A DNA stretch of 64,000 bases from Mobula hypostoma (taxonomy: Eukaryota), in assembly GCF_963921235.1 (NCBI RefSeq), contig NC_086108.1:63242001-63306000 (forward strand), read 5' to 3'. A program made the translations under genes and the position numbers. Shown here in pieces: positions 1-56,348 of the stretch. Below the pieces are notes generated by a model, which made no database searches, was not told the DNA's origin, and saw nothing but the letters and a program-made list of their open reading frames with translations. Each line of letters opens with the position of its first letter. The stretch's first letter is position 1.

Positions 1-1111
1 TAATTTAAGCATAAGAAACCAAGATAACATAATAGTATACTAGATTTTATATATATCAATGGAAAAAAAAGAAAAAAAAACCCCCCAAAAAAAACCCACC
101 GTGCAACTAACTAAAAGCAAAGCAAAGCAATGGGCTAACTTGAAACCAAACAGAGTTAAACTTAAAATCACGTCCTCAATCCCGACCTCCATTAAAACAG
201 TGAAAAAAAAACAAGAAGGGTAAATATTACATTAAATGAAAATATCGAATAAAAGGTCCCCAAATCTGTTCAAATTTAAATGAAGAATCATAAAGGTTAC
301 TTCTAATTTTCTCCAGATTCAAACATAAAATCGTCTGAGAAAACCAAAAAAAGGTAGTTGGAGCATTAAGCTCTTTCCAATGTTGTAAAATACATCTTTT
401 CGCCATTAAAGTAAGAAATGCAATCATTCTACGGGCTGAAGGGGAAAGATTACTAGAAATTTTAGGTAGTCCAAAGATAGCAGTAATAGGGTGAGGAGAG
501 ATATCTATATTTAATACCTTAGAAATAATATTGAAAATATCTCTCCAAAAAGTTTCCAAAGTAGGGCAAGACCAAAACATATGAGTTAAAGAGGCTATCT
601 GCCCCGAACATCTATCACAGAAAGGATTAATATGCGAGTAAAAACGCGCTAACTTATCTTTGGACATATGTGCTCTATGAACCACTTTAAATTGAATTAG
701 GGAATGTTTAGCACAAATAGAGGAAGTATTAACTAATTGTAAAATCTGCCCCCAATCATCCACAGAAATGGTAAGCCCCAATTCCTGTTCCCAATCTACC
801 CTAATCTTATCAAATGGAGCTTTCCTAAGTTTCATAATAATATTATAAATCATAGCCGATGCACCTTTCTGACATGGATTAAGGTTAATTATCGAATCTA
901 AAATATATATAGGAGGAAGCATTGGAAAGGAAGAAAGTATAGTGCTTAGGAAATTTCTAACTTGTAAATATCTAAAAAAATGTATTCTTGATAAGTTATA
1001 TTTATTAGATAATTGTTCAAAAGACATAAGGGAACCATCTAAAAATAAATCCAAAAACCGTAAAATACCCTTAGTCTTCCAAGTTTGAAAAGCGCGATCC
1101 GTAAAAGAGGG
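1..1111 (-). mobile_element. 5'-truncated L1-clade LINE (ORF2 C-terminus with Cys-His zinc knuckle plus 3'UTR); runs off the window start
   Basis: ORF 227-1276 has CDRC..SLTHMFWSC and ends QIWGPFIRYFHLM. It closely matches the copy at 37488-40439; similarity stops near 1111. Confidence 0.9.
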
Positions 1112-1516
1112 TGTTATTCTCAACATAGCCTCTTTCCACGCTGTCTTTAAACTCATGTGATTCACTGAAAAATCTATTATACTACTGTATTGTACAACAA
1201 CTTTAAAAAAAATGTTTGGGTATTGATCGCAGTAATGTATAACAGTCTGGAAAACCTGCCAGTCCAACGCCACCAAAGTTCCAAGGGTTGTGGATTATCA
1301 GTGTTTTACTTTACTGAAAAAAAAGAACAGTTTTCCTCAGCTCCAGATGCATTTGCATTATAAAAACCCTAGTGCAGAATTTGCAGCTCTGCTTTGCTCA
1401 TCTTCTAATTAAGAAGCTTTGAATTTAATTTAGTTTTAAGTTAATCAGACAATATATTTTCACATGTAAACTATCTGAATCCTTTTCCTTCATGTTAATC
1501 AACTTTTAAGTTTCAG

Positions 1517-1591
1517 ATTCAGGACCAGAATTAATGATCACGAATCCATATCCATCTTGTAATCTACTTAATGCTACAGCAATGGATGAAG
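1517..1591 (+). CDS. Candidate internal exon of the divergent AP-2-like gene: (D)SGPELMITNPYPSCNLLNATAMDE
   Basis: Acceptor ttttaagtttcag and donor GAAG|gtacag. 75 nt, open, phase 1-1. Its last G plus the AA opening exon 11080 forms an in-frame GAA. No homology support. Confidence 0.45.
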
Positions 1592-1712
1592 GTACAGTTT
1601 ACTTCAATTGAAATTCCTGTATTAACCAAGTTAGAAAATTCCAAATGTACATTTTAAACACAAAATATTTTGCAAATGCTAGAAACTATGTTTCTACGTT
1701 TCTAAACCTTGA

Positions 1713-1806
1713 CAACACACATAAAATGCTGGAGGAACTTAACAAGTCAGGCAGCATCTATGGAGAGACGTAAACAAAGTTTTGGGTGGAGACCCTTCAT
1801 CAGGAT
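1713..1806 (-). mobile_element. Degenerate Penelope-like pLTR fragment
   Basis: caacacacataaaatgctggaggaac...gagacccttcatcagga, the same family motif as the younger copies. Confidence 0.6.
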
Positions 1807-4662
1807 ATTTTTTGTTATAACCCTGAAAAGAAACTAAAATTGCAAACTGTGAAATTGTTACTTCAAATAAAATGTTCTTTAACATATTTCTTTAAATAAG
1901 TTGTTTGCAGAATTTAGTAATGTGTAAATACATTTTTTAATTTTAACTTTGTCCCAGTAATTTTTCCATTGCTGTTTTGTTTTACTCATGCTAATTTGTT
2001 TGAGTTCCTCATTCACTGTGTTTTTCCATTGTTTCTGGGATGATTTTTCTGTATCTTTCTTGAAGACAAATATTTGTTTAACCTCTTCCATTTTATCATT
2101 ACTCAGCACAATTTCTATTGCTTCTGTATAAAGGGTCCACTGAAATGTAAGATAATTTTCCTTCTTGTAGATTTAATGCAACTTTTACAGTCTGTGTTTA
2201 TGTTTATCATTGGTCTGCCTTTGCATTCTATTTTCCCATTGCTTATCAATGCCTGGGTCTGACTTCACTGAATTCTGAAATTTTCCTAACTTGTAGACTT
2301 GGTGGTTTTTATTTTTATCTTTAAAGCTATGGTTGCATCACTTTTCCTATTAGAATTTTTGCCTTAAAGGCATATCATATTGTAAGTGGTGTATTCAGAC
2401 CAAATATAACCATTGTTGCCATACTGAAATTCATTGTTAAGGGCAACTGTTTAAATTAATGTCTCTGTGTGGTCATAGAGCTTCCCGTATATTCCCAGTG
2501 AAAGTAGATCTGATGATCTGTTCTCTTCCTTCCCCATGTTTCTACATCCATGGCCTATTTCTGATTGTTATTTAAATCAGCTGTACAAAGGAATTAAGAA
2601 GGAAAGCATGATTTTCTACTGAAACAAGCCAAAAGATACATGTTAATACCTATCCAGAAATAGGGTCGCTGCGAAATGATAGTGATATAATTAAGTTTTG
2701 AAGCTGAGAAACAAATATACAGAAGTGTAGCTGGTGCAGTTAAGACCTGACCAATCTAGTATAGAGGTGGAATTAAGCACCCGTACTTGACTCTAAGGAC
2801 CATGGATTGTAACATGAGAGGGATGGGTAGCTGCTTTTTGACTGGCATACGTACAGTGGGCTGAATAGTCTGCATGACATACAGTAAATTTTGATCAGTC
2901 CATGAAAATAGGAGCAGTAGTAGGCCACACATCCTCTCAACCCTACTTAATTATTTAGTACGGCATTGAAAATGATTACACTTGTCCTCAGTATTATTCC
3001 TCTGCCCGAGTCCCATAATCATGACAGTGTAGGAGCCACGTATCTACTTTCTGCCCATTGGGGAAATGGATCTCTTTTCTTTGTCTTTGTTGTAGTTTGT
3101 GACGCGTTTATTATGGTAATCTGTCACGTGGGTTGGGGTGTGTTAAAAGCACATGAGTACAGTTGCGTATTCTCATTTTGTTAGTTGTTTAGTGGAGAGT
3201 GAGTAAGTCACAGGAAATGATCATTTTTGTTGACTGTTAATTGGAACATTATGTGACTGCTTAAATATGCTAATTAGTTTGGCTAATTTTGTTATTTTGT
3301 TAACTTGATCGCTAAGTAAAATGCTATTAGAACACATAGTTACGCTATTCAACTGCAAGTTAGATGGTATGAGTTCCTATATTGAAAAGGCACAAAGAAA
3401 AACAAAAACACCCAGTATCAATGGTGATTTATTTGTTCCTCAAGTGTGTGGGAAATGTGAACAAGACTCCTAAGAGATAGTTCAGGGTGCTTCCTATCAT
3501 CCTGCAATAATGATGCACTCTAAATCTATGTCATATCCAAAGGCTCTCAGTGCTCATGGGGACGTTAACTTACAGCTTGGAAACACTTTTGTTTTAGATG
3601 ATAAGAGGTCAAAATAATACTATTGATATGAGGAAGCAAAATAAAATAACAGTCTTATTGGTACAACAGCAACACATTTCATCTTTGCCCAAATGAGAGA
3701 TTTAGATCTTCGATGGTGAGCCATTGCTCTATCATGCATTCATGAGGGTTTTGAAAACAGTGTTGAAGGCAAGACTGAAGTTTATAGTGATTACCTCTAT
3801 TTCCTTGAACAATACACTAGAGGTCACCGTAGAGAACTTGTCAGAAGTTGCCAGCATGGTGACCCTAAGAAAGATATCTTAATAGCTAAGGTTTTACTAC
3901 AGAACATTTCAGTAATGAACAGTAAATTACATCCGCCTACATGCAAGAGGCTTTTTCTTGGGTACCTATCAAATCTGAAGTTATGGAACTTACTCAGGTA
4001 TACAGTCTTTCTCTTAGAGGCAGTTGCAGTGCTGTGGAAAAATTGCAGTACATGCGCGAACTGGACATGCCTACTAATATATCAGTTGTCGTAAAGAAAT
4101 TGCCCTATGTGCTTAGGGATAAATAGAGGACATTAGCCTATAAACTGCAAGAAATGCACAACCATAAGATTACATTCACTGATGTTGAGGCAAGTGAAGA
4201 TTACTCCACATCTGTTGATTGAAAATATACAGAATGCTGCATCACCTGCAATAAACAAAGATAAGAAGTCACAATTTCATTCTGAGGCTGAAGGAAGCAG
4301 CTTTGCTACTACTGTAGCCACAATGGGAAGTAAAGATATAACTGAACCTGGAACTGATGGAAGGGAAATGGTCTCATCAGCCAAAAGGATTTGTCTGTTC
4401 TCTGGGAATAAATATACTTTGGATTTGTGCCCTCTGCTGGAGAAAAGGGCTCATAGTGAGAAGATTGCCTTCCTAAAAGAAAATTGTGTCTGCTTTAGTT
4501 GTTTGCCTACTGGACACTTCAGCAAAGATTGTAGGAAGTGTCTCTTATGCAAGGTATGCAGTGGCAAGCATCCCAGCATATTTCATATTCACTCTAATGA
4601 AAAGGGTTCAGAATCAAAACAAGCCATTAAAGAATCAGACACAGCAGTGATTAGTGCCCTTG

Positions 4663-6267
4663 AATAAGATATAGGAGCAGAATTAGGCCATTTGGCTCAT
4701 CGAGTCTGCTCTGCCATTTCATCACGGCTGATTCTATTTTCCTCGGCCCCAGTCTCCTGCCTTCCCCCCATTTCCCTTCATGCCCTGACCAATCAAAAAT
4801 TTATCAATCTCTGCCTTAAATATACATAAAGGTTTACCCTCCACAGCTGCCTGTGGCAAAGAATTCCACAGATTCACCACTCTCTGGCTAAAGAAATTCC
4901 TCCTCATCTCTGTTCTAAAATGAGACTCCTCTATTCTGAGGCTGTGCCCTCTGGTCTTAGACTCTCCCACCATAGGAAATATCTTCTCCACATCCAGTCT
5001 ATCAAGGCCTTTCACCATTCAATAGGTTTCAATGAGCTAATCCCTCATTCTTCTGAATTCCAGGGAATATAGGCCTGGAGTCACCAAATGCTTTTTATAT
5101 GAGAAGCCATTCAATCCTGGAATTATTTTTGTGAACCTCTTTTGAACCCTTCCCAGTTGCAGCACATCCTTTCTAGGATAAGGGACCTAAACTTGCCAAC
5201 AGTACTCCAAGTGAGGCCTTGCCAGTGCTTTATAAATTCTCAACATTACATCCTTGCTTTTATATTCTAGTCCTCTTGAAATGAATGCGAACATCACATC
5301 TATCTTCCTCACCAGCGTCTCAAACTGCAAATTAACCTTTAGTGAATCAAACCTTGCACGAGGACTCCCAAGTGTCTTTGCAACTCAGTTTTTTGTATTT
5401 TCTCTCCATTTATAAAATAGTCAACTGTTTCATTTCTTCTACCAAGATGCACGACCATACACTTCCTGACACTCTATTCCATCTGCCATTTCTTTGTCCA
5501 TTCTCCTAATCTGTCTTAAGTTCTTCTGTAGCCTCACTATTTCCTCAAAGCTACCTGCCACTCCACCTGTCTTCATATCGTCTGAAAACTTTGCAACAAA
5601 GCCATCAATTCATCATCCTAATCATTGACATATAATGTAAAAAGAATCAGACCCTTTGAAACACCACTAGTCACCGGCAGCCAGTCAGAAAAGGCTCTTT
5701 GTATTCCCACTGTTTGCCTCCTGCCAATCAGCTACTGCTTTATCCATGCTAGAATCTTTCCTGTAATACCATGGGCTCGTAGCTTGCTAAGCAGCCTCAT
5801 GTGTGGCACCTTGTTAAAGGTCTTCTGAAAATCCAGTAAACAACATGAACCGATTCTCCTTTGTCTATTCTGCTTGTTACTTCTTCAAATAATTCCATAA
5901 TATTTGTCAGGCAGAAATTTCCCTTGAGGACATTATGGCCTATTTTATCATGTGCCTCCAAGTACCCTGAGACCTCATCCTTAATAATCAACTCCCAACA
6001 TTTTCCCAACCAGTGAGATCAGACTAACTGGTCTATAGTTTCCTTTCTTCTGCCTCCCTCCCTTCTTGAAGATTGGAGTGACATTTGCAATTTTCCAGTC
6101 TTCCATAACTGTTCCAGAGTCTAGTGATTCTTGAAAGATCATTACTAATACCTCCATGGTCCCTTTAGTTATCTCTTTCAGAACTCTGGGGTGTACAACA
6201 TCTAGTCCAAGTGACTTATGTACCTTCAGACCTTTCAGTTTCCCAAGAACCTTATCTCTAGTTATGG
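4663..6267 (-). mobile_element. CR1 LINE fragment inserted in the BEL element between gag and protease
   Basis: Minus-strand ORFs with KKGNYRPVSL and RRNFFSQRVVNLWNSLP. The BEL frame rejoins across the insert as SAL|VSNGLTEAG. Confidence 0.9.
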
Positions 6268-8308
6268 TATCTAATGGCCTCACAGAAGCTGGTGATCATG
6301 ATTGTAAACTTCCTGTAGTTCCAGTACAAGTGAAGTCTAAGAAGGGTAACAAGACAGTGGTTACTTATACTTTCCTAGATCAAGGAAGCACAGCAGTCTT
6401 CTGCACAAAGAGCCTCATGAACAAACTCAACCTCACAGGAACCAGGACATGCATTCTCTTATGTCGTGAGTGGTTACATTGTTTCAGGATTGGAAGTGGC
6501 TGGCTTAAATGGTGAAAACTGTTGTGAATTGCCTAACATCTGTACACAGGGAAGTGTGCCTGTCCATGGAGGGATCATTCCATATCAAGGGGATCTCCAG
6601 GAATGGTCTCATCTGGAACATGTCTATTTGCCAGAGACTCATTCAGAAATTGAACTGCTGAGAGGGACAAATGTGCCTAAAGTATTAGAGCCATTGCAAG
6701 TGATTCACAATGTTAATGAAGGACCCAATGCAATTAGAACAATGTTGAGTTGAGAATGAATTGACCACTGAAAGGAGAGAATGGTGATGGAAGAGACTGT
6801 GCACAGTCAAAGCTGACAGTTAACGGGATCTCAGTTTTGAACTTTTGGTTTCGGTAGCGGCAGTTCAAGGCAGACTTCCCTGAATACAGTCAGGGTGAAC
6901 AACTTGGTTTATCAAGAGAAGATCACAAGTTCATGGAGCTGGTTATGAATTTTGCAGATTTGATGGATGCCCACTACCAGATTAGTTTATCTTTGAGAAG
7001 GAAAGAGGTTAATATGCCAAATAATAGGAAGGTTCTTGAACTGTGTGCTGTAAACCTAAGAACGAGTTTTAAGAATGATTTGTCATTTCACTCTGACCTC
7101 ACAGCTTTCATGAAGGCTGTCATCTCCAAAGGTTATGCCAAAAAAGTGCCGGCAGGGGATATTGGATGACTGTGATGGGAAAGTCTGGCATATTTTTCAT
7201 TGTGGTGTTTATCACCCCAGAAATGGTAAACTTCGGGTTGACTGTGGAGCAATTGTTCAGGGAATATCACTTAATGCTCAGCTTTTACAGGGACCAGATC
7301 TTACGTGCTTACTGATTTTAGTCATAACCAGATTGAGAAAAAAATCAGTGTTTAATCAGGTTAAAGTACTAGTGGAAGATGCAGATCTGCTGAGGTTTCT
7401 TGGTGGCTTGATAATGACCTCTCAGCCAAGATATGTTGGACTTTAGAATCGTGCTACATCTCTTTGGTACAACTTGAACAAACTCTGCCAACTTCACTTA
7501 GGAAATGCGCAGAAGACAATGAAGAATAGTTCAGCTGTGAGACGGTGGATAAGGTTTTGTATTGCTTCTATGTTGATGACAGCCTTATGTAGTGTCCTCT
7601 GAGCAAGAAGTGGTCTCTCTCATTCATAACCTTGTATCCATTTGTGCTAGAAGTGGCTTTTGACTCACAAATTGGATCAGCAAAAGACATGAAGGATTTG
7701 GTTTTGGATCAAGATTTACCTTCAGTGGGGAGAGTACTGGTTGTTCAATTGTGCATTCAGGCTGATACTTTCAAGTTTAAGATCACGATCCAAGATAGAC
7801 CACTCACGAGAAGGGGGATCCTCTCCACAGCTATTTCCATCTATGATCCTCTAGGAATCTTTAAGTCCAATGGTGTTATCTGCTAAGAATATCCTACAAG
7901 ATCCATATAAAAAAGGATTTGGCTGGGATGACACTGTATCAACATCTGTTGGTCACATGTGGACAAGCTGGCTGGAAGACCCCAAGGTTGTTAGATGGTC
8001 AAAACCCCTGTATTTTGGAGAAGTTACTACTGCACAGTTGCACCACTTCACAGATGCAAGCAAAGATGGCTAAGGAGCAGTGACCTATCGATTGTTGCAC
8101 AACTGGCCCTGTCAGGTGCATGGTGCTTTTATCATGGGAAAATTTAGGGTTGTTCCGTTGAAGTCAGTTTCCATCCCTCATATGGAGCTCATCGCTGCTA
8201 CGATGGCAAGCTATATGGACACATTGTGGAGGAAGAAGTTGCACATGTAGCTTCAGGACTCAGTGTTTTGGACTGATAGTGCTTGTGTGCTGAAGTGTAC
8301 CAAGAATG

Positions 8309-8409
8309 AGTCCTGATGAAGGGTCTTGGCCCAAAACGTTGACTTATTTACTCTTTTCCATAAGTGTTGCTTGGCCTGTTGAGTTCCTCCAGCATTTTGT
8401 GTGTGTTGC
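8309..8409 (+). mobile_element. Short Penelope-like pLTR insertion with a degenerate hammerhead motif
   Basis: agtcCTGATGAagggtcttggcccAAAAcgttgact...gtgtgttgc, interrupting BEL pol. Confidence 0.65.
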
Positions 8410-8507
8410 AAGAGTGAAACTTCCAGGTTCCAACCTTCGTTGCAAAAGTAGTTTTAGAAATTCCTAAGGTCTCATAAACATCTCAATGGACATATGTAAA
8501 CATTTAC

Positions 8508-8613
8508 ATATTACTATTTAACTATTTATGGTTTTATTACTATTTAATTATTTATGGTGCAACTGTAACTAAAACCAATTTCCCCGGGGATCAATGAGGT
8601 ATGACTATGACTA
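8508..8613 (+). mobile_element. 3' tail of a Rex1/Babar-like LINE
   Basis: ggtgcaactgtaactaaaaccaatttccccggggatcaatgaggtatgactatgact; reverse-complement match to 34703-34800. Confidence 0.6.
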
Positions 8614-10786
8614 TTTTAAGCAAACTGGCGGATGTGGCATTGAGAGAGTTGAAGGTGAAAGCACTCCTGAAGAATGAGAAATAAGTGTCAGGCCTCGGTA
8701 TCTTCTTCAGACTAAAAGCAATGGCCTGTGAATCCCAATTGTTGTGTGAACTTCTGCTAGATAATCCAGAGGTCAAGGGGAGAGTTGCAATGAATTCCAT
8801 GCAGATTGAAAAGGAGGTGGACACTTCTCATCTTGGGCCCACTTGAAGAAGACAGTGGCCTAGATTCATCGAGTAAGGAACCTTCTCTTGTTTCTTTGTA
8901 GGAAGAGGAAGCAAGTGAACATTACCCTTGCTCTGTCAGACTTGGATGAAGAACAACAAGAGTATTCTTTGGAGAGAAAGATTGAGAATGCCAAAGTTCA
9001 GATCAGTTGAGGTTGTCTGAGTGGAGGAGCTCAGAAAGGCTAAAATGGAGATCACTGAGTTTTGCCAAGTTTTCAAAGGGGAGAACGTATGAGAAGCAAC
9101 AGCCATATTTCAAGGTCAATTCAGTACTTGAGGATGGTGTCTTGAGAGTTGGTGAATGGCTTAGTAGTGCAGCTGTACCTGAAGAGTCTAAACATCCTGT
9201 TAAACTGGCAAAGGATCTTTTATGTCTCAGACTTCATTCTGAGGCATGTACATCAAGTGGGACATGGTAGCCAAAACCGCATGTCATCCAAAACCACGTC
9301 ATCCAGGTTGCATTAAAAATACTGGATTTCTAGTGTGCTAGTAGAGCCATAAAAAGAATCCTGTCTATGAATGTTGTTTGTCAACAGTTGCATGCAGCTC
9401 CAGGATGCCAGCACGTGGCAGGTCTGCCTCTGGATAGGGTCTCATCAGATAAACCTCCGTTTACATGTGTAGGAGTGGACTACTTTGGACCCTTTGAGGT
9501 GAACATCAGAAAGAGTACAGTGAAGAGGTGTGGGGTCATATTTATATGCATGGCTACACAAACTGTTCACATTGAAGTGGCATCTTCTTTAAACATAGAT
9601 TCCTTTGCTAATGCACTTCAACACTTTATAGCATGAGGAGGACAGGTTCGTGAACTGCACTCTGATAATGCAACAAACTTTGTTGGAGCTGAACGTGAGT
9701 TGCGAGAAGCCATTGAGAAGTGGAATCATTCACGATTCAGTGATTTTTTATCTTCAAAAAGGAATTAAGTGGATTTTTAACTCCCTGGCTGGTTCATACC
9801 TTGGAGAACATGTGAGAGATTGATCAAGTATGTGCAAAAGGTCCTCAATTCCACCACGAACATACAGAATCTTGACAAAGATGGTTTCCATACAGTCCTT
9901 TGTGAAGTAGAGGCTATTATCAATGGTTGTCCAATTACTGATGCATCCTTTGATCCCAATGATTTGGAAGCACTAATTCCCAACCAGCTGTTGCTTCTGA
10001 AGACCTCACCATCCTTACTACCAGGAGGGTTCAAGAGGAAGAGGTTTATGCTCATTGTAGATGGAAGCAGGTCCAGTACTTGCGAAACTTGCTTTGAAAA
10101 TGGTGAGGCAAAGAGTGTTTCCTACAGTTATGGGAATGTAAGAAATGGTCAGATGTGAAACTTAATTTCCTCCTGGGAGACATTGTGCTTACATTTGATG
10201 ACACAGTGCCTCAAAACTCATGGAATGTGGGAAGAGTCATCCAAATCTTTCCAGACGGAAGAGGATTTGTGTGGCAGCTGTGCATCAAGACCAAGACCAG
10301 GTGTCTGGACAGGCCTATAATTCGTTATTTTGCTAACTGGATCTCCAATTGGAATGCTATTAGAACATGTAGTTACACTATTATTGCTATTAGACCACTA
10401 CATAGCTAATTTAGTTTTAAAATCGCTACAAGGTCATTCACCTTTGCTGATTTCATAATAAGGGATCGAATATACCTTTTTTGGTTTGGATATTCATTAT
10501 TTGGAAGCACGTAATACGTTTTCAAGTACCTTAACTTAGTCCCTCAGCGGCTTTGGTTTGTTTTCAAGTAACCACTACAAACAGTATGTTCAAACCATAA
10601 GAAAACTCTCTTGGTTCTTACATCACTCATTACAATAAGGCATTGATAATTTTCTAAAAGAGATGATAAGCATAAAGCTCATTGAATGACTATCCACTCA
10701 TTGTTAATATTTACCCTAAATAGAGGGCCTGAAATACTTCCTCCAAAGTCTCAACTATGAAATGGTGAAGGAGAAACAAAAGCGTA

Positions 10787-10946
10787 GATGAAAGAAATTC
10801 TGCAGATGCTGGAAATTCAGAGTAAGACGTACAAAATGCTGGAGAAACTCATGGGATCCCAATGAAAGGTCTCGAAACATCGGCTATTTATGCCTCTCTA
10901 TAGATGCTGCCTGACCTGCTGAGTTCCTCCAGCAATTTGTGTGTGT
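10787..10946. mobile_element. Old miniature Penelope-like fold-back insertion
   Basis: Inverted pLTR pieces flanked by an imperfect 12-bp TSD aacaaaagcgta/aacaaaaacata. Confidence 0.6.
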
Positions 10947-11079
10947 AACAAAAACATAATATTGGTAAAAATTGACAATGTTGCTATCTTCATTGCACCC
11001 TTTGTATTGTCATGGTACAAGATGCATCAAATTCTTGTAATAATAGTAAATCTATAATAATGCTTTCTTTATGTTTCAG

Positions 11080-11449
11080 AACAAATTGTTGTTGCCCATG
11101 TGCCTGCTTTGCTCCCCTCAGCGGATGATAAAAAGAGGAAAGTTAAATATCCTGTGACTAAGGGAGAAATTAGAAGGCGCATTATTCCCCCTGAAAAAAT
11201 GTCCAAAACAGTCATTAAAAGCTATCTGAGGTTAAGAAGGGATAACCGCTTTGATATCCGCCAACTTCTGGATCTTCCTGTAACTGGTTATGACCGAACC
11301 CTTCATACATCTTTTACTCGACTCTGTGAGGGAGAGGCAAAAACACTGACAGAAAACTTTCATCAGCTGAACCTTGGCTACTTTCCTGTTGATGAATGTG
11401 CCAGCATGATGGCAGAAAAAGCTGCAGCATCAGAAATATATGCAGCAAG
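11080..11449 (+). CDS. Divergent AP-2 (TFAP2)-domain protein, main exon (basic region and first HSH helix)
   Basis: Acceptor ctttctttatgtttcag. Open frame QIVVAHVP...KYPVTKGEIRRRIIPPEKM...TRLCEGEAKTLTENF...YFPVDEC...IYAAR, matching TFAP2 motifs KYKVTVxEVQRRLSPPE, LVEGEAVHLARDF and EFPAK. Donor AG|gcaagt. Confidence 0.85.
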
Positions 11450-13652
11450 GCAAGTGGGTAATCTGTATTTAATTGAGAGCAACTGAAGTTAATTAGCTAA
11501 TAAGAATTATATGTTGGATCCATCCGGAGGACCTGAGTTTGAATCCCAAGCTTAACTGACATTTGTATTCCTTAAGAAGGTAAGTTTAAAAGATGTACAG
11601 TAGTTAATTCCCTTGTAATAGAAGTGGCTGAGAGTAGAATTTTCTAATCCCTTCTTCCGTTCTGACAAGAGACTTCCATCTTAAATGTTTCCATTAATTG
11701 CTGCTCCATAGTGTCCAAATTCTGAACCATTTTGTCCCACCAGTTGAAGTCATGGCATAAATCCAGGCATGAAAAATGGAATTAAATGCAATGATTGAAA
11801 TGTTCTAAAGATCTGTTTTATTACATATGACATCTTACAGGAAGAAATTGCTTATCTGATAGGTTGTGTAAAGTTAACCATAAGATTTATACCCTTGATT
11901 ATTCAGCATTTCGAGAACTATTATGGGAGATCGTACAAACTTTAAAGATGTAGAATTGAACTAGTAGTTGTTTGATTTATAATTTAGGTAAATCATGTTC
12001 TATGTGGGTTTACAGTCATAAAATTTGTATTTCTGCCCCTTGTAGCTACTTGTTGGGCTTTTTGCTCAATTTTATTTAGAATATGTTCGACAGCAGTTTT
12101 CTTCATCACAGTTTTCATCATTCCTTTTTCTGTTAAGTTTAATTTTCATAGGATTTTGATTTCTCAGAATTCATTGTACAAGGTTTTGGAATGAAAAAAG
12201 ATTTGAATACTTAATATATGTGGTATTTTGGAGGAGAAATTATCATCAGTATTCAAACAATTAAGTAAAGGTTATGGGATGGAGCAAATGTGATGCTAAG
12301 ATTATAAATAAGGACATCAGAACTTGGAAGTATTAAGCTAAACTTTGAGTTACATCCTGCAAAACTTGCCATCAGCTTCTACATAGCGGACTCCAATTGA
12401 AATGTTCTGCCTAAAAATGAAATCCTCTCCAATAACTAGAAAATGTTTAAAGCAAAACATTTTCATCATTTTTAGATTGTCTGTAATTTTCTGGATTCCA
12501 TCTATTGGGCATTGATTTTATTAACTGGATTTTTACTCACATTAAAACAATAATAATCAATATTCAAATAGAGTGCAGAGAAGGAAAATATTAACATCAC
12601 TTTCAGAAATCATGTGTTAAATCTTCCAAATCAAAGGTACCACTATAAGGCTCAGATTTGCCCACGTTTCTCCATGTTTCCAGCAAATATCTGAGTTTAT
12701 CTTGGCATCTTTCACCTTGTAACCACTGACATAGTCTGCCTCTCTGTTGTTCTTAATGGAGTCCAGTACAGCAGTGTAACCTTCCAGAAGCCAAATCTGT
12801 AAATCTGTTGTTAAACTGCCTCGAGTACAACAGCCCAAATCATATGAATGTGAGAAATTGGCTTTATGAAAAAAGGAGTTATTTCTAGTTAATTTAAATG
12901 TATTTCTATTGCTTTAATTTTGTATTTATTTTATGTCAGGTCCCAAATCTTAAACATCGTCAATATCAATGTCAAATATATTCAAACATGACACCTTTGA
13001 CAGGTAGTGAGTTAAGGGTGAGGCTGTGCTGGTAGTCCAGGCTCTCTCTGAGTACATCTGAGTAGCTGACTTCATTGAGATGTACTTCACACTGCAAATG
13101 GCCCTGCAAAATACAAGGTACTGGCATCTTGCAGTCAACTTATCATGGGCCATATTTAAAGAAACGGGATCTTGGGATGACAGATGGTGATCTGTCTCTA
13201 ATCAACAGAGCATCAGTATACTATATGTTTCAATATCATCCCTAACAATATTGGGATTATTTCATAGGTAGTTTGACTGGGAAAGAACAGCCACTCACAT
13301 TAAATAAGATGTGATTTGTTCAGTTGTGTCTGAATGGTAGCTTTTGTTTGGGCCTTTGCAGGAGTGACCAGTACTGCAATACCAGAGAAAATCTAAGACA
13401 AACTTGAGACTTGTATCACAATATTTGCAATCTTCCCTTCACTGTTTTTAAGGATGGCTTGTGTGGGGAGTTGAAAAATAAAACTAATACGTATGGGGGT
13501 GAGTGAAGAACATTTTACCTTTAATCTTATCATCTGACCCTATTCCCTAATGCCAACATGTTGGGTATTCAAAATGGAAAAAAAAATACCACTTCTCCCT
13601 TACTGAGCATTCATAGCTTTTTTTAAATAAAATGTTGTATTCTGCAGATATA

Positions 13653-15279
13653 CAGTGGCATGCAAAAGTTGGGGCACCCTGGTCAAAATTTCTGTTACTG
13701 TGAATAGTTAAATGAGTAGAAGATGAACTGATCTCCAAAAGTCATAAAGTTAAAGATGAAACATTCTTTTCAACATTTTAAGCCAGATGAGTGTATTATT
13801 TTTGTTTTGTACAATTTTAGAGTGGAGAAAAAAAGGAAAGGGGCAGCATGCAAAAGTTTGGGCACCCCAAGAGATTTGAGCTCTCAGATAACTTTTAGCA
13901 AGGTCTCAGACCTTAAATAGCTGGTTAGGGCTATGGCTTGTTCGCAGTCATCGTTAGGAAAGGCCAGGTGATGCAAATTGCAAAGCTTTATAAATACCCT
14001 GACTCCTCAAACCTTGTCCCAACGATCAGCAGCCATGGGCTCCTTTAAACAGCTGCCTAGCGCTCTGAAAATTAAAATAAATGATGCCCACAAAGCAGGA
14101 GTAAGCTATAAGAAGATAGCAAAGCGTTTTCAGCTAGCCGTTTCCTCAGTTGGTAATGTCATTAAGAAATGGCAGTTAACAGGAACGGTGGAGGTCAAGT
14201 TGAGGTTTGGAAGACCAAGAAAACTTTCCGAGAGAACTGCTCATAGGATTGCTAGAACGGGAAATCAAAACCCCCGTTTGAGTGTAAAAGACCTTCAGGA
14301 AGATTTAGCAGACTCTGCAGTGGTGGTGCACTGTTCTACTGTGCAGCGACACCTGCACAAATATGACCTTCATGGAAGAGTCATCAGAAGGAAACCTTCC
14401 CTGCATCCTCACCACAAACTTCAGCGTCAGAAGTTTGCAAAGGAACATCTAAACAAGCCTGATGCATTTTGGAAACAAGTCCTGTGGACTGATGAAGTTA
14501 AAATAGAACTTTTAGGCCGCAGTGAGCAAAGGTATGTCTGGAGAAAAAAGGGTGCAGAATTTCATGATAAGAACACCTCTCCAACTGTTAAGCATGGGGG
14601 TGGATCGATCATGCTTTGGGCTTGCGTTGCAGCCAGTGGCACGGGGAACATTTCACTGGTAGAGGGAAGAATGAATTCAATTAAATACCAGCAAATTCTG
14701 GAAGCAAACATCACACCGTTGGTAAAAAAAAAGCTGAAGATGAAAGGATGATGCTTCTACAACAGGATAATAATCCTAAACACACCTCAAAATCCACAAT
14801 GGACTACCTCAAGAGGCGCAAGCTGAAGGTTTTGCCATGGCTCTCACACTCCCCCGACCTAAACGTCATCAATAATCTGTGGATAGACCTCAAAAGAGCA
14901 GTGTATACAAGATGGCCCAAGAATCTCACAGAACTAGAAGCCTTTTGCAAGGAAGAATGAGTGAACATCCCCCAAACAAGAATTGAAAGACTCTTAGTTG
15001 GCTACAGAAAGTGTTTACAAGCTGTGATATTTGCCAAGGGGGGTGTTACTAAGTATTGACCATGCAGGGTGCCCAAACTGTTGCTTTGGGCCCTTTTCCT
15101 TTTTTGTTATTTTGAAACTGTAAAAGATGGAAACAAAAAAGTAATCTTGCTTAAAATATTAAAGAAATGTGTCATCTTTAACTTTATGCCTTTTGGAAAT
15201 CAGTTCATCTTTTACTCGCTTAGCTATTCACAGCAACAGAAATTTTGACCAGGGGTGTCCAAACTTTTGCATGCCACTG
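13653..15279 (+). mobile_element. Full-length Tc1-family DNA transposon (IR/DR type) with a disabled transposase
   Basis: TA-flanked TIRs CAGTGGCATGCAAAAGTT...AACTTTTGCATGCCACTG. The inverted repeats are about 215 bp, with inner direct repeats at ~13848 and ~15067. Confidence 0.95.
14035..15059 (+). pseudogene. Tc1 DDE transposase pseudogene
   Basis: Motifs GRPRK, LWTDE, VKHGGGSIMLW, QQDNNPKH and SPDLNVINNLW (catalytic E replaced by N). Frameshift near 14724-14750 and a stop at 14958. Confidence 0.9.
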
Positions 15280-16514
15280 TATGCCTTTATCTTTATAATC
15301 TGTCACCTAATTTTTAATATATACATTGAGAATAAACACTGATGTCATTCAGTTTGGATTAATTTTAACGAAGGCATGGATTCAATCATTCTCCATCATA
15401 AATTAGTTATTTGCAATTGGTTTCTATCTGCCTGTAACTATTTTTAGTTTTTTTCTAAACATAATGCCAAAGTAAAACAAGAATCGAACTACATTTTTCA
15501 TAAGTTTTAGTTTTAAAGCACAGTTTGCATCAGTATATTTATATTCTGTCATATTTATTTTCTTTACCTTCATCTTGCATAAGGCAGTTGCAAGAAATAT
15601 TGAATATTCTAAATCAATTAGTTTTTATGATCATTATAATTATTTAAATCAATTAGTCCTTGACAATTAAAATAACTTTTTTCATGAGGATGTCTGTTTG
15701 ACTAAATATCTGGTTATTTTAAATGTAAGATAAATATTTCTGTTGTCGATTATTTCTTTCCCTTATATTGTATATTTGGAGACCTTTTCCTAATACTTTC
15801 CTAATATAACATCACAATTTACAGCAGGGACATAAAAAGAATAAGTTAAGTAGCATGCATAAGTGAACAAAATAACATAATGTCACATGAATTGTGAATG
15901 TGGTATAGGCACTAGGACTTTAACCGATGTATCAAAAAGAACGTAATAACAGATATCTCACAAAACTAATTGCTGAAACATTGATATCTGAGTGCTTTTG
16001 ACATTTTGAAATCTTTACCTTATAATGACTGCCAGTGCAAGATAAGATATCATTTTACACAATGTTGACCAATTAGTTCCCCTGCATTTCTCAATATTTT
16101 CTAATTAGCATTAGCAGGACATTTTATTGGAATGTTTCTCAGATCTTTTCACAATGCTGTTGTGAATGGGAATTTGCTGTTCGTGATTTGTTACTTTTGA
16201 TCCTGGTTTTTCCTTCTGAATCTCTGGCACTGGAAACTTGGAAATAAGGGCTCTTATAAAATTATATCTGCAATAAATGTGTATCAGAAATGTTTATCTG
16301 CAGAGAAGATTTGAGGGAAGATGAAAACTGTCAAATCAGATGAGGAGCCATTCGTCTGTTGAGATGGCATTGAAATTGCCAAAGATGAGGAGCTCTAAGT
16401 TGTGTGTTAAGAAGGAATGATATCTTTCAGAGAAACATTCCAGAGAATGTGGTTTGGATATGTCATACCAAAATATGTGAATGCAGAAATATGATATGCA
16501 GACAGGATTGGAAG

Positions 16515-18092
16515 TGATTGAATCAACCTATCACGAGAGACCTTAATAAATGCCTTATTGAAGTCCACATAGATAACGTCCAATGCCTTACCCTTATTAA
16601 GCTCCTTCGTCATGTCCTCGAAAAACGTGGTTGTTTGTATGGCATGATCTACCCTGCACAAAGCTGTGTTGACTGCCCCTAAGCACATGATGCCTTACCA
16701 AATGTGCATAAATCCAATAGTTCCACTATCACTGATATGAGGCTCACTGGCTTATAATTATATGAAGAAAGGGACAATGAGATGTATCCTATTAGGCCCT
16801 TGGGATTTATCCAACTTGATGCTGTTCAGAAGACCTAGGACTACCTCTTCCTTAATCTCAAAAATATCTAGCACATTGGCATGCCTCATTTTCCCCCTTT
16901 ACCATCCTCCAAATACTCATTTAGTACCTCAGCCACTTGCTCTGGGTCAAGAAAAAATTCCCTCCTTTATCCTTGAGTGGACCTACCATCTCTTTAGTTA
17001 ATCTCTTTATCTTAACATAAGATGCCTTGGAATTCTCCTTGATGTTGCTTGATAAGGATATTTCATAGCTCGTTTTGGCCTTCCTAATCACCTGCTTGAG
17101 CACTTTCCTATTATCATTATATTGTTCAAAGGCCCAGTCTGATCTTAGCTTTCTAAACCTGTTTGTGCTTTCTTTTACTTCCTGATTAAATTTACAACCT
17201 CTTGAGTCATCCAAGTTTCCCCCTACTTTACCATTCTGCCTTGATCCTTACTAGAACTTGTTGATCCTGAACTTTGATTACTTGGTCCAAGAACAGTTAC
17301 TACCCCTCAACCATTAGGCTCTTGAACAAAAGAAGATAACTTCACTCAACTGCACTTGTCCCATCTTGTAAATGTTCCCACACTTAATGAACCCACTTTC
17401 AGGGACTCTTCCTTTTATGTTCTTGATATTTAGTGCTTATTTTTTTATTTTTGCATTTGCAGTTTGTTGTCTTCTGCATTCAGGTTGAACACCCTAGTTG
17501 GCTGGTCTTTCATTGATCCTGTATAGTTACTATTCTATAGATTTGTTGAGTATGCCCACAAGAAAATGAATCTCAGAGTTGTATATGTTGATATATTTGT
17601 ACTTTGATAATAACTTTTATTATCTTTAAACTTTGATCGGTTGGTGTTGATACAACCATGTGTTAGATGTGGCTTTGTCGAATAGCAGCTGCCTCCAGTC
17701 AACTTTCATTAGCTTCTGTTTTGTCCTGTCACAACTTGCTCTCCCCCGATATAGTACATTACCACAAGATCCAATTTTATCCATACTCACAACGATCTTA
17801 AAACATAATGAATTGTGGTCTTGAGCCCCTAAATTTTCACCCAGTATCCCACTATCGGGTATGTCACCTGGCCTTCTCAATTCCAAAACCAGATCCTGTA
17901 TTTTTTTTCTCCTCTAATTGACTCTCCACATATTTCTCAACTCACTAGCACATGACATTTGTAGTAATCCAAAGATTACAACCTGGAAATCCTGCTGTTT
18001 AGCTTTCTAACAGTCTCCCTAAAGTTCCTATGCAAGATATCATCCCTACTGCTGTCTATGTTATTGGTACTCACATGGACCATCACCTCTGG
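16515..18092 (-). mobile_element. Highly decayed CR1 LINE (ORF1 esterase and ORF2 pieces), with a Rex1/L2-like tail at ~17295-17615
   Basis: ORF pieces DVIYVDFNKAF, KEMVGPLKD and VMVHVSTNNI. Confidence 0.65.
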
Positions 18093-19043
18093 CCATATGC
18101 TCCATGGTAGGGTTGGTATGTTTCTGATGATGTGCCGTGTTTGGCTTACTCTAAACATAGTATTTAGTCTGATGGCCAGAAAGCTCAATTTTGGTTTCAT
18201 CAGTCCATAGAACCTTCTTCCAGCTGACTTTAGAGTCTCTCACATGCGTACTGGCAAAGTCTAGCTGAGATTTCATGTGTGCTTTTTTTCAACAATGGCC
18301 TTCTCTTTGCCATTCTCCCATAAAGCTGCAACTGGTAAAGCACCTGGGCAATTGTTGTTCTATGCACAGTCTCTCCAGCCACTGAAACTTGTAACTCCTC
18401 CAGAGTTGTCATAGGTCTCTTGGTGGTCTCCCTCACTACTCCCTTTGATGGCCTGCTCTAGGCAAATTTACAGGTGTGCCATATTCTTTCCATTTCTTGA
18501 TGATTGACTTAACTGTACTCCAAGGGATACTCAGTGACTTGGAAATTTTCTATTTTCTTATATCCATCTCCTGACGTGCTTTTGAATAACTTTTTTGCGG
18601 AAGTGCTTGAAGTGTTCTTTTGTCTTCATGGTGTAGTTTTTGCCAAGATGTTGACTCACCAGCAGTTGGACCTTCCAGATACCTGTGTATTCTTATTACA
18701 ATCAATTAAAACACCTTGACTGCACACAGGTCTCCAAGAACAGTTCTCCAGTTAACTAATAATGTGACTTCTAAAACCAATTGGTTGCACCAGTAATGAT
18801 TTGGTGTGTCAGATTAAGGGGGGGGGGGTGAAATTGAATACTTATGCAATCAATTATTTTGTTTTACATATTTGTAATTAGATCACTTTGTAGAGATCTC
18901 TCTTCACATTGACACAAAAGTGTCTTCTTCTGTTGATCAGTGTAAAAAAAAAGTCAAATTAAATCCACTGATGTTGTAAAACAATAATACATGAAAACTT
19001 CCAGGTGTGGGGGTGGGGGGCTGAATACTTACTTTAGGCACTG
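18093..19043 (-). mobile_element. Truncated Tc1-family transposon (second family)
   Basis: End reads TA-CAGTGCCTAAAG..GTATTCA on the minus strand. Transposase pieces RETTKRPMTTLEELQ and LYGRMAKRRPLLKK. Confidence 0.8.
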
Positions 19044-19156
19044 TATTTTCATATGAGAAATAGTGATTTTGTTGTAAATTTATTGTATTGATGTATCTCA
19101 AAAGGGGTGATAAAAAACTTACAAGCTTACTAACTTTTAATTTAAATTTTCTGCAG

Positions 19157-19316
19157 AAAGGTGATTGAAGATCTTGATTCAATCATGAACAATTTTATGT
19201 GGCAGGAACACCCATATAATTTAATCACACATGGATTTGGGCCTCAGAACATCAAGGTGGTTTTGAACTTGATAAAGCTACTTCTACGAGAATCACTACG
19301 AAAGTCAGCATCCTAA
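19157..19316 (+). CDS. Divergent AP-2-like protein, terminal exon: KVIEDLDSIMNNFMWQEHPYNLITHGFGPQNIKVVLNLIKLLLRESLRKSAS*
   Basis: Acceptor ttttctgcag. Phase 2 fits the GC donor (AG+A = Arg). YNLITHGFG matches the TFAP2 signature F(N/S)LI(S/T)HGFG, followed by an amphipathic helix and TAA at 19314. Confidence 0.85.
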
Positions 19317-19596
19317 TGCAAGCAGACCAGAATTTATATATTTTTTTAATCGCAATAGTGAAAAACATTTCTGTGTTTTGTCTGTTCACCCTATTCACAT
19401 GTTACTAACTCTGTAATGATAGTTACAGAAATGTTTTATAATGTAATTTATACAGAAGCCCTTCTCTATAAAACTGTCAATGGGACAGCTGCGTAAAAAA
19501 TTGTGTGGGAAAATGGAACGGAGAAGGCATCTCTTGAGTTTGTTAGATAGTTAGAAAATTGTTTATTTGTTGTAGTGAATGGGTCCTGTACTTCAG

Positions 19597-19602
19597 AATA
19601 AA
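19597..19602 (+). terminator. Probable polyadenylation signal of the AP-2-like gene
   Basis: AATAAA about 280 nt after the stop codon. Confidence 0.5.
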
Positions 19603-20140
19603 ATGTACGTCAAAAATAGTGTAAAATGTGAAATGTTTACATGAATCAAATGAACTCTGTGCTGTTAAATGGTTAAAATACCAAAATCATTGTTTATTCA
19701 GACAAGTATATACAGACAGCGAACTGAAACTCATCTAACCATAGCAAATCCTACCTGAGATTTGTAAAATTCCTTCCTGTGCACAGAAGTGCAGATTAGC
19801 ATGAAAAAAAATGACTATTGATTGAAAGAAAACAAGAAACAGTCTAGTTAATCTTTATTCAGGTTTGCCACTCTTGCTTAGTAATCAAATTAATAGAAGC
19901 GTCCTGTATCAGATCAAGATTTGGCACTTCTACTCAATTGACATTAGTGTAATTAATCCAAGAGGTAAAAAATCATGTTTTTGTTAATCTGTACAATGAA
20001 CATATAAACTGGAAGCAGTAAAATGTGGAGTAAAGAACTTACAATTAGTTATTTCTCATCTGTGCATTGTAATTCTTCAAAAATAAGTATTGTAAACAAC
20101 TTCAGGTGAGAAAATGTGGATTAAGTCAAAGATTTTAATG

Positions 20141-52493: not shown

Positions 52494-52566
52494 AGACCCA
52501 TCTTTTTTCAATGAATCATGGTTGAGTCGCATTAAAAGTGATGTGGGTGAGAATTCCAGATTGAAG
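52494..52566 (+). CDS. HOOK1: Hook exon 3: DPSFFNESWLSRIKSDVGENSRLK
   Basis: ttcttgcag|...AAG|gtacag; 73 nt; FNESWLSRIK as in HOOK1. Confidence 0.92.
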
Positions 52567-53059
52567 GTACAGTTCTGAATGCTATCAAGCTGATATTTTT
52601 AAAGGATTAAAGCATCATTGGGATGTTTTGTGTAATAATTAAAAATATGACATGTACATTATTTTAGCAAAGAATTTAGAAGTATAAATTCATTCCTCTT
52701 CTAATAGCTCTAAAATGAAAATGTTAAACTGGATTCAAATTTCTGTGAACTGTGTAATGGTAAAACATTGAAGTGTACAGTGGTCTTTAACAGAAAATAT
52801 AGAACAGTTGGGACAAATTCTCAGCAGCTTTTAATAAATTGCAAAATAGCATACTTACTGAACTAGTATAGTTCAACTACCAATATATACAACAGCCCAT
52901 TTATACAACTTGATCAAGAAAGAATCAAATGCAAAGCTACGCTGGTTTCACATTTCTGTACTAATTATTTATCTGCCTCGACTTACAAATGCAAAGTTTC
53001 TCCTCATAGCAGTCTGAAAGTACTTATATTATTTCTTATGTGTTTGCTATTCTCCACAG

Positions 53060-55795: not shown

Positions 55796-55928
55796 GTACT
55801 CGCCCAACAGATCGCAGAATCTCTTCACCCAGATTTGAGTCTGATTGTAGATCATGTTGATGTAGTGGAACTCGGCAGATTGCTCCAACTGATTTTGGGG
55901 TGTGCAGTAAACTGTGAGAGGAAGGAGG
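55796..55928 (+). CDS. HOOK1: Hook exon 5: VLAQQIAESLHPDLSLIVDHVDVVELGRLLQLILGCAVNCERKE
   Basis: ELGRLLQLILGCAVNC signature; tttgcag|...G|gtacgt; 133 nt. Confidence 0.95.
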
Positions 55929-56348
55929 GTACGTGTATTGAAAATTTATAATTTTGTTTTGTCAGAGCATTGCAATCAGTTGTATGTGCTCCTTTAGGGC
56001 TGTATTGTTTTTTTAGAAAAAAGGACATTTCACATTAAATCATCTGCCCAACTCCTGAAGAAATTGATTAATGCTGAGATATGATTTTTAGGAAAATCAT
56101 CCATCCTTAACTCTGCCAGTACCTTTTAGTGTAAGCTCAGATAGTTCTGGCAACTAGACAGTGGGAACATCATAAATGAAGTGATGTTGTTTATACAGCA
56201 TGTGCATAGTTGCTACAGTAGCTATTGAATACTCTTCCCGCCTGAGAGAACTTATTCCTAGCGTGTCAGCTGATAACTGTTGTTTTAATGCAAACTGGGA
56301 GTTGAAGCTGCACCAGATGTCTGGACATCACCTTTTTGACATCCAACA

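Follow-up and report, generated by a model that had tools for sequence, protein, structure and literature searches.

Here, we describe a gene of the ray Mobula hypostoma whose 3′ part lies in a stretch of 64,000 nucleotides of contig C50 (C50:63242001-63306000 of a 3.48-Gb assembly), referred to below as the window. The exons in the window are the 3′ part of a single-copy, spliced and transcribed protein-coding gene that is conserved across Chondrichthyes, that is a non-canonical relative of the AP-2 (TFAP2) transcription factors and that encodes a probable dimeric DNA-binding regulator. Exons were placed by tblastn of the Mobula birostris model P0070 (659 aa) on the window and 60 kb upstream, and splice sites were read from the DNA. 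Seven coding exons were found at 98-100% identity, those numbered 6 and 7 being 100% identical to the P0070 model. The coding part spans C50:63192221-63261316, about 70 kb, with exons 1-4 lying 32-50 kb upstream of the window. The features of the gene are as follows.

C50:63192221-63192248, plus strand: coding exon 1, the ATG exon, with an acceptor directly before it
C50:63192810-63193886, plus strand: coding exon 2, 1,077 nt, phase 1-1
C50:63205749-63205958, plus strand: coding exon 3, phase 1-1
C50:63209952-63210005, plus strand: coding exon 4, a 54-nt cassette, phase 1-1, absent from the Heptranchias and Stegostoma models
Window 1511-1591, plus strand: coding exon 5, 81 nt, phase 1 to phase 1, encoding (V)SDSGPELMITNPYPSCNLLNATAMDE, the linker preceding the AP-2 module
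Window 11080-11449, plus strand: coding exon 6, 370 nt, phase 1 in and phase 2 out, encoding the DNA-binding part and the first pairing helices (E484-R607)
Window 11450-19156, plus strand: intron 6, 7,707 nt, GC-AG type, phase 2
Window 19157-19316, plus strand: coding part of exon 7, encoding K608-S659 and TAA, with the last helix-span-helix helices including LITHGFG
Window 19317-20040, plus strand: 3′ untranslated region (UTR), with AATAAA at 19597 (281 bases past the stop) and AGTAAA at 20017 and 20029

Reading the DNA directly joins exons 6 and 7 in frame across a 7,707-base GC-AG intron. A stop-to-stop scan of the plus strand gives open frames of 141 codons (11061-11486) and 56 codons (19146-19316). 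Exon 6 is bounded by the acceptor tttcag|AAC at 11080 and the donor AAG|gcaagt at 11450, while exon 7 begins after the acceptor ctgcag|AAA at 19157 and ends with the stop codon TAA at 19314-19316. The codon split between the two exons is AG|A (Arg), and only the GC donor preserves the frame. The GT at 11454 was considered as an alternative donor; it does not match the frame of the only acceptor, and the transcript contigs do not use it. Exon 5, located by tblastn of P0070 and by reading of the DNA, is flanked by aag|TTT and AAG|gtacag. All internal coding exons before the AP-2 module (2 to 5) are of phase 1-1. Retention of intron 6 leads to a stop at 11484-11486 after QVGNLYLIESN, and the last pairing helices would then be missing; a Stegostoma RefSeq isoform (P0074) has a similar ending, QVANLCI. 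The original prediction, made from the letters of the stretch alone, had proposed two exons 7.7 kb apart that splice in frame into a domain of about 175 residues, followed by a polyadenylation signal. This is borne out: the joined reading is stop-free and gives 176 residues, equivalent to E484-S659 of the orthologous 659-aa protein, and AATAAA follows downstream. The two-exon picture itself needs amending, as both exons were right but are numbers 6 and 7 of seven, and the further exon at 1511-1591 had been missed.

Splicing is seen directly in assembled contigs, which were aligned to window positions 1400-19700 and come from four public runs on two coded organisms in two studies. Runs of six further coded organisms, which contain shares of 0.34-0.77 of the exon 6 words, were left out of this comparison. 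One contig in each of the four runs brings exon 6 (11078-11447) next to 19155 onward in record coordinates, as had been proposed for this junction, and in three of the four (X1, X2 and X5) exon 5 (1508-1589) stands directly before exon 6 in the same contig; the offsets of 2-3 bases at these joints arise because bases at the splice sites can be aligned equally well on either side. The contigs extend about 335-343 nt beyond window position 19700. Within the 3.48 Gb, exon 6 has one match as protein (four candidates scored) and one as DNA, so the spliced contigs do not come from a processed DNA copy. Exon-joined contigs without a retrocopy mean that the spliced form exists as a transcript, and the gene is therefore spliced and present as transcript. 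The single match also answers the question, raised with the original prediction, of whether dispersed copies would reveal the sequence as transposon cargo: they do not. Two AP-2-like proteins, P0002 (E = 1.3e-18) and the lamprey protein P0022 (E = 6.1e-7), each match only the exon 6 locus in this genome. A comparison of coded organisms A and B gives a single synonymous change (11285 T>C) in 530 coding bases of exons 6-7, one Pro/Ser change in exon 5 (1552) and three differences in 384 bases of 3′ UTR, too few for a test of selection.

The encoded protein can be divided into four parts: an N-terminal His/Cys-rich domain of about 60 residues, a Ser-rich, predicted-disordered and poorly conserved linker of about 280, a moderately conserved helical region, and the AP-2-type module. 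The module was compared with the Pfam profile TF_AP-2 (PF03299), which has a gathering cut-off of 23.4 bits. Taken singly, exon 6 reaches 46.2 bits (E = 6.3e-12, profile 13-119) and exon 7 reaches 14.9 bits (E = 0.026, profile 164-196), the latter under the cut-off. The full-length proteins reach 54.5 bits for P0070 and 54.6 bits for the Callorhinchus protein P0001, and the spliced peptide thus stands above the cut-off in the profile search suggested for it. The landmarks named at the outset (VP, KYPVTKGEIRRRIIPPE, YLR, LCEGEAKTL, FP, LITHGFG and a terminal helix) are all there, in order. A sequence search of the Protein Data Bank (PDB) recovers TFAP2B (8j0q, E = 2.2e-4) and TFAP2A (8j0k, E = 1.4e-3). 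In an AlphaFold model of P0070 built on a 30-row alignment, the predicted local distance difference test score (pLDDT) is 77-94 over residues 481-659 only, and mostly below 50 in the first 365 residues. When this model was compared with solved structures using Foldseek, the best eight PDB matches were all TFAP2A/B chains (E 2.8e-8 to 1.2e-6, target TM 0.65-0.71, probability 1.00), and the ninth had E = 1.3. The 176-residue domain is therefore predicted to adopt a TFAP2A/B-like fold with a DNA-binding lobe and a helix-span-helix lobe.

Modelled as a homodimer, residues 484-659 score 0.83, whereas the highest of three controls scores 0.00; contacts agree to at least 95% among the three runs, and the pLDDT of the partner is at least 85. 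The mark used for such dimers had been reached by 21 of 30 microbial proteins solved as pairs and by none of 23 solved as single chains; for eukaryotes the figures were 17 of 29 pairs, and one of seven among those without an older solved relative. The predicted interface holds L580, Y627, I639 and I646, the last three encoded by exon 7; the four align to V307, F379, V391 and L398 of TFAP2A. These four TFAP2A residues form its dimer face, and their mutation to Asp renders TFAP2A insoluble, according to the mutational results given in PMC10450164. The protein is thus predicted to pair through the same hydrophobic helix-span-helix face as TFAP2A, a statement of likeness and not of binding.

Conservation of the gene is confined to cartilaginous fishes in our searches and is strong there. 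When 1.84 billion representatives were searched exhaustively with exon 6 (phmmer), 39 matches were returned at E <= 0.001, the best of which is the Callorhinchus milii 'uncharacterized protein LOC103185275' (P0001; 603 aa, E = 1.3e-67, 91% identity, residues 429-550). With the Callorhinchus C-terminus as query, a word-indexed search gave 19 clusters at E <= 0.001, all chondrichthyan, from 12 species: a chimaera, representatives of six shark orders, skates, rays, sawfish and electric ray. Word-indexed protein searches, one of them over at most 8000 candidates, return these same 19 clusters only and fail to reach KIAA1958 and the long P0002 relatives, and are weak evidence of absence elsewhere. 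The domain is invariant at 153 of 176 residues in nine species including the chimaera, with only three variable positions from H489 to A592, making the DNA lobe the protein's most conserved part. In an alignment of the proteins of the 12 species, from which truncated or alternative-isoform models (Narcine, Rhinoraja, Stegostoma) were left out for regions they lack, identity to Mobula is 91-99% for exon 6, 84-98% for exon 7, 81-95% for the N-terminal domain, 72-84% for the helical middle and 43-77% for the linker. At the level of sequence, this unevenness is the pattern given by purifying selection on the domains, and the constraint proposed for the open frame is upheld by the contrast between the near-invariant module and the linker. 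A DNA lobe so nearly invariant probably still binds a ligand.

The gene had also been called undescribed, which is right for the literature and wrong for the databases. No description of it, or of non-canonical vertebrate AP-2 genes, was found in full-text literature (subscription journals lie outside the coverage), but RefSeq models exist in 12 chondrichthyan species, LOC103185275 among them. Nearly all of them carry the name 'uncharacterized protein'; 'KIAA1958-like' is used for two Stegostoma isoforms, and one UniRef name opens 'Transcription factor AP-2 C'. What is new is the combination of domains in a gene of a non-canonical AP-2 lineage that, although present in databases, is unstudied.

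The canonical TFAP2 genes of the same genome provide a direct comparison. PF03299 has 20 matches in the genome: 19 fall in five canonical TFAP2 loci, and the twentieth is exon 6. The view that the sequence is too divergent to be any of TFAP2A-E is thus confirmed, all five canonical loci being present separately. Each of the five splits the domain at RR|AKSK and VEG|EA, and the four whose last exon was found do so also at ATK/R|Q; for the fifth (C2:149.02 Mb), a last exon was sought in 10 kb without success, and its row in the tree is partial. The canonical intron phases, read in one locus of this genome, are 2, 1 and 2. In the chondrichthyan gene a single exon runs across profile positions 13-119, so that the first two canonical breaks are absent and only the last intron is kept. 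In the alignment, intron 6 shares both its column and its phase (2) with the last canonical intron (LLATK|Q). Exon-sized fragments of other non-canonical relatives end at, or read through, the same column (...R|), so the last domain intron would be old, common to the whole superfamily and older than TFAP2A-E.

A maximum-likelihood tree of 47 rows was built from the five canonical loci, nine chondrichthyan proteins and 33 of the 38 other exon 6 phmmer matches; P0004, a truncated isoform, was dropped, as were P0018, P0019, P0031 and P0037, which were missed by the anchor pattern. The tree contains a canonical clade of nine rows, comprising the five vertebrate loci and four invertebrate AP-2 proteins, with 99/96 support, and the chondrichthyan gene lies outside it. 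Instead, the gene is grouped at 86/81 with the fragments P0002, P0003, P0029, P0007, P0010 and P0032. In the approximately unbiased (AU) test, a clade of the gene and the five vertebrate TFAP2 loci is rejected (log-likelihood (lnL) 48.2 lower, p = 5.3e-5). The same test rejects a grouping that joins the gene to the lamprey and cypriniform non-canonical proteins alone (p = 0.0027), which implies at least two non-canonical lineages. The phylogeny with TFAP2A-E and invertebrate AP-2 proteins that had been suggested as a check gives no support for a place inside or with the canonical clade, and the claim of a sixth TFAP2 member gives way to that of a non-canonical lineage.

The relation to the canonical proteins is one of shared core and divergent surroundings. 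Like TFAP2A (structures 8J0K, 8J0L and 8J0R) and TFAP2B (8J0Q), the gene's product falls in the same Pfam family and has the same predicted fold. It keeps the KY.VT..E..RR..PPE core, LCEGEA, FP and THGFG, it conservatively retains the four hydrophobic dimer positions, and its gene agrees in the residue and phase of the last domain intron. Unlike canonical TFAP2 proteins, to which it has 21-22% identity in structural alignments, it has a loop about 24 residues shorter before THGFG and is about eight residues shorter after FP. Its Loop 1 is longer, its Loop 2 is shorter and the equivalent of K257 is Arg. The gene is without the two other domain introns, and about 480 residues at the N-terminus are unrelated. 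TFAP2 proteins are marked by a PPxY motif in a Pro/Gln-rich N-terminal activation region; the motif, sought as PP.Y, is found in none of nine orthologues.

On these comparisons, the gene is a member of a loose, scattered set of non-canonical AP-2-like genes and not the sister of TFAP2A-E. The set, uncharacterised throughout, includes the lamprey LOC116940714 'AP-2 gamma-like' (P0022), the cypriniform proteins 'AP-2-delta-like' (P0009, from suckers) and LOC127416615 (P0025), Nematostella LOC116613986 (P0039), a protein of the coral Oculina, proteins of the woodlouse Armadillidium, and the fragments P0002, P0003, P0007, P0010 and P0032. The nearest relatives are database fragments at 39-41% identity. 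Like the other members, the chondrichthyan protein has a compact domain without the long TFAP2 loop; Pfam scores in the set are about 34-68 bits, against 190-283 for canonical proteins. It differs from them in sequence (30-41% identity) and in its N-terminus, since none had a KIAA1958-type domain in the comparisons made. As lead only, a protein atlas scored P0002 at 0.87-0.89 to TF_AP-2 clusters. The RefSeq names 'AP-2-delta-like' (sucker P0009) and 'AP-2 gamma-like' (lamprey P0022) are probably misleading, both proteins lying outside the canonical clade in the tree.

The N-terminal domain leads to a different family. Residues 23-83 match an open reading frame (ORF) at C12:134940906-134942081, the first coding exon of that locus, with 38% identity over 61 aa (BLASTP, E = 2e-14). 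This ORF is followed on the same strand, 41 and 67 kb further downstream, by two DUF3504 ORFs without introns. Intronless DUF3504 exons downstream are the layout of KIAA1958, which is Crypton-derived according to the account of this gene in Kojima and Jurka (2011; PMC3212892). The gene, the C12 KIAA1958 locus and a third paralogue on C90 have 17 invariant columns, including H29, H31, C35, C59 and H63 (fragment numbering), and this His/Cys set suggests a metal site. We conclude from the alignments that the gene is chimeric and combines an N-terminal domain of KIAA1958 type with an AP-2 module. It resembles KIAA1958 in its N-terminal 60 or so residues and in the NCBI name 'KIAA1958-like' given to the two Stegostoma isoforms; unlike KIAA1958, it has no DUF3504 and carries the AP-2 module at the C-terminus instead, and the two loci are separate (C50 and C12). 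No DUF3504 (PF12012) match was found at E <= 1 in P0070 or P0059, none of the 21 genomic DUF3504 matches is on C50, and the protein has no recombinase match either. A 100-residue AlphaFold model of the N-terminal domain (mean pLDDT 59, core 56-79) has a helix and a three-stranded sheet. In the protein atlas, as lead only, scores of 0.90-0.91 link the N-terminal part to 'hypothetical' clusters; one of these, at 0.90, has Mutator on 34% of members.

Two observations on KIAA1958 in the ray may be added. In its orthologue at C12:134873733-134942081 (minus strand), the two intronless DUF3504 exons are both present, as ORFs of 379 and 308 aa; Kojima and Jurka (2011; PMC3212892) reported isoform b to be lacking in the chimaera. 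The third KIAA1958-type N-terminal domain is at C90:4813586-4813741 (minus strand; WAHDHGRECGF...WECLAGHTYPW), in a very GC-rich stretch filled with simple repeats.

How the AP-2 module might act can be considered residue by residue. In the structural description of TFAP2A in PMC10450164, the bases of the target GCC(N3)GGC are read by K257, S222 and S247, and the backbone is held by R217, K226, R254, R255, K259, R263, R266 and K282. Correspondences were taken from HMMER and MAFFT alignments. K226 (K506) and R254 (R534) are kept together with the core KY.VT..E..RR..PPE, and two base-reading positions are changed, S247 to T527 and K257 to R537. Loop 1 is three residues longer than in TFAP2 and reads DDKKRK in place of SSTS, and Loop 2 is two residues shorter. 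The differing DNA-reading loops, together with K257R, R255L and R217L, suggest that the target motif is probably not the TFAP2 site GCC(N3)GGC. The gene product is most likely a dimeric DNA-binding factor with altered specificity. Two copies would pair via the flat hydrophobic face of their helix-span-helix lobes, in a TFAP2A-like manner, and pairing would place two basic lobes on DNA; the dimer may then act as a sequence-specific nuclear DNA-binding regulator. In this scheme, dimerisation is drawn from the model, while DNA binding, specificity and the nuclear role are inferred.

Several points weigh against this account of the gene and its product. Backbone contacts of TFAP2A are lost at R217 (L494), R255 (L535) and K259 (N539), and one alignment places Asp at the Loop 1 position of S222; given the lost contacts, the module might bind DNA weakly or not at all. 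TFAP2A/B homodimers have been solved, and the dimer score may thus echo learned likeness to such structures instead of this protein's behaviour. The tree has long branches, and the join of the gene with P0010 and P0032 was flagged as possibly false (treekit). For the N-terminal domain, a wide VIA-align search found no fold match at Z >= 5, the best (Z 4.0) being sliding-clamp subdomains and others. Finally, the runs are labelled only 'RNA?', which is a guess, and their contigs carry no information on level, tissue or strand.

The changes in the DNA-binding lobe are also what an alternative reading is built on: that the protein keeps the helix-span-helix face, has lost specific DNA reading and modulates by pairing, with itself or with others, possibly canonical TFAP2 proteins, as a scaffold or dominant-negative partner whose KIAA1958-type domain does the rest. 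The four hydrophobic interface positions of TFAP2A are conservatively kept inside the predicted interface, R217L, R255L, K259N and K257R all alter DNA contacts, and Loop 1 gains two Asp. However, the DNA lobe is the part of the protein that varies least, and such constancy would be puzzling in a lobe that binds nothing. The lobe retains R254, K226 and the core motif, and Lys and Arg abound in its altered loops (KKRK, RLRR). We consider the loss of DNA reading unlikely, and continue to favour a DNA-binding dimer. Smaller still is the chance that the gene is a sixth TFAP2 paralogue, that is, a fast-evolving TFAP2A-E ohnologue from the vertebrate genome duplications that survives only in cartilaginous fishes. 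The gene does have the same fold and the last domain intron in common with TFAP2, the intron at the same residue and in phase 2, and the high-identity matches in named species are only vertebrate. The intron, however, predates TFAP2A-E and so is no argument for this origin. The other two canonical domain introns are missing, PPxY is absent from all nine orthologues, and the N-terminus is KIAA1958-like. Both the canonical clade and the AU test set the gene apart from TFAP2A-E, although long-branch attraction could still mislead here. We regard this origin as improbable and retain the non-canonical lineage.

It is less probable again, and very unlikely in our judgement, that mobile elements account for the locus, either because the AP-2-like module, the N-terminal domain or both are transposon-derived or because the locus is still cargo. 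The distant AP-2-like match P0016 contains HTH_psq, a domain typical of pogo-type transposases; the look-alike cluster of the N-terminal domain with Mutator on 34% of members (language model, score 0.90) is a lead only; and the run of phase 1-1 internal coding exons suits exon shuffling. The Crypton derivation of KIAA1958, as described in PMC3212892, points the same way. On the other side, the gene is present in a single copy in 3.48 Gb, has seven spliced exons over about 70 kb and is modelled in 12 chondrichthyan species including the chimaera, and neither a DUF3504 or recombinase match in the protein nor a DUF3504 on C50 was found. It is therefore not current cargo. That the reading is a chance open frame or a decaying pseudogene is hardly credible: there are decayed repeats around it and the DNA is AT-rich, but profile, fold, splicing and conservation refute it.

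Neural-crest, epidermal and craniofacial development depend centrally on AP-2 factors, and the vertebrate family is treated as five near-identical paralogues. With this gene, cartilaginous fishes keep a sixth AP-2-domain gene of another lineage and architecture. It is almost unchanged among chimaeras, sharks and rays, and therefore does something. Its differences in the two loops that read DNA in TFAP2A offer a natural experiment for learning what determines the target motif of an AP-2 fold. Human KIAA1958 is a gene of unknown function, and the fusion would give a first functional handle on its N-terminal domain. Proper classification would also correct the misleading names of the lamprey, cypriniform and cnidarian non-canonical proteins. 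More tentatively, and as a possibility that we rate as doubtful, vertebrates may carry old, overlooked AP-2-superfamily lineages beside TFAP2A-E, with this gene a survivor that predates the canonical radiation and was lost in bony vertebrates. On the same tentative footing, the KIAA1958-AP-2 fusion could be a 'Rosetta-stone' hint that the Crypton-derived KIAA1958/KCTD1 set and AP-2 belong to one pathway; PMC3212892, in citing earlier work, has KCTD1 binding AP-2 alpha.

The surroundings of the gene contain a HOOK-family gene and several repeats. HOOK_N exons lie at window 52495-52572 and 55775-55936 on the plus strand, and HOOK exons follow from C50:63313312 to 63367803, past the window end; the predicted downstream HOOK gene is therefore present, on the same strand. 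An FGGY_N match is found at C50:62810365, 380 kb upstream and on the same strand. FGGY followed by HOOK1 is the order at human 1p32, which would make the downstream HOOK gene HOOK1. Further HOOK-profile matches at C50:63455319-63473659 and 63569417-63579701, about 100 and 200 kb downstream, cover the same profile segments (315-349, 387-418 and 473-512) and resemble partial tandem copies of 3′ exons. The transposable elements nearby had been described as decayed, and intron 6 does hold broken pieces of Tc1/mariner transposase. The repeat features of the window are as follows.

Window 13975-14960, plus strand: decayed Tc1/mariner transposase in intron 6, with HTH_Tnp_Tc3_2 and DDE_3 pieces in different frames (Pfam)
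Window 18233-18457, minus strand: second Tc1/mariner fragment in intron 6 (Pfam)
Window 37938-40340, minus strand: long interspersed nuclear element (LINE) reverse transcriptase frame of 800 codons, apparently intact over that length
Window 230-1294, minus strand: related decayed LINE copy with a zf-RVT match

A short repeat also occurs at window 4838-4919, 8309-8407 and 10900-10944, the last just upstream of exon 6. Its word depths are in the thousands in all four runs, with many chimeric joints, and it resembles an abundantly transcribed element of the short interspersed nuclear element (SINE) type.

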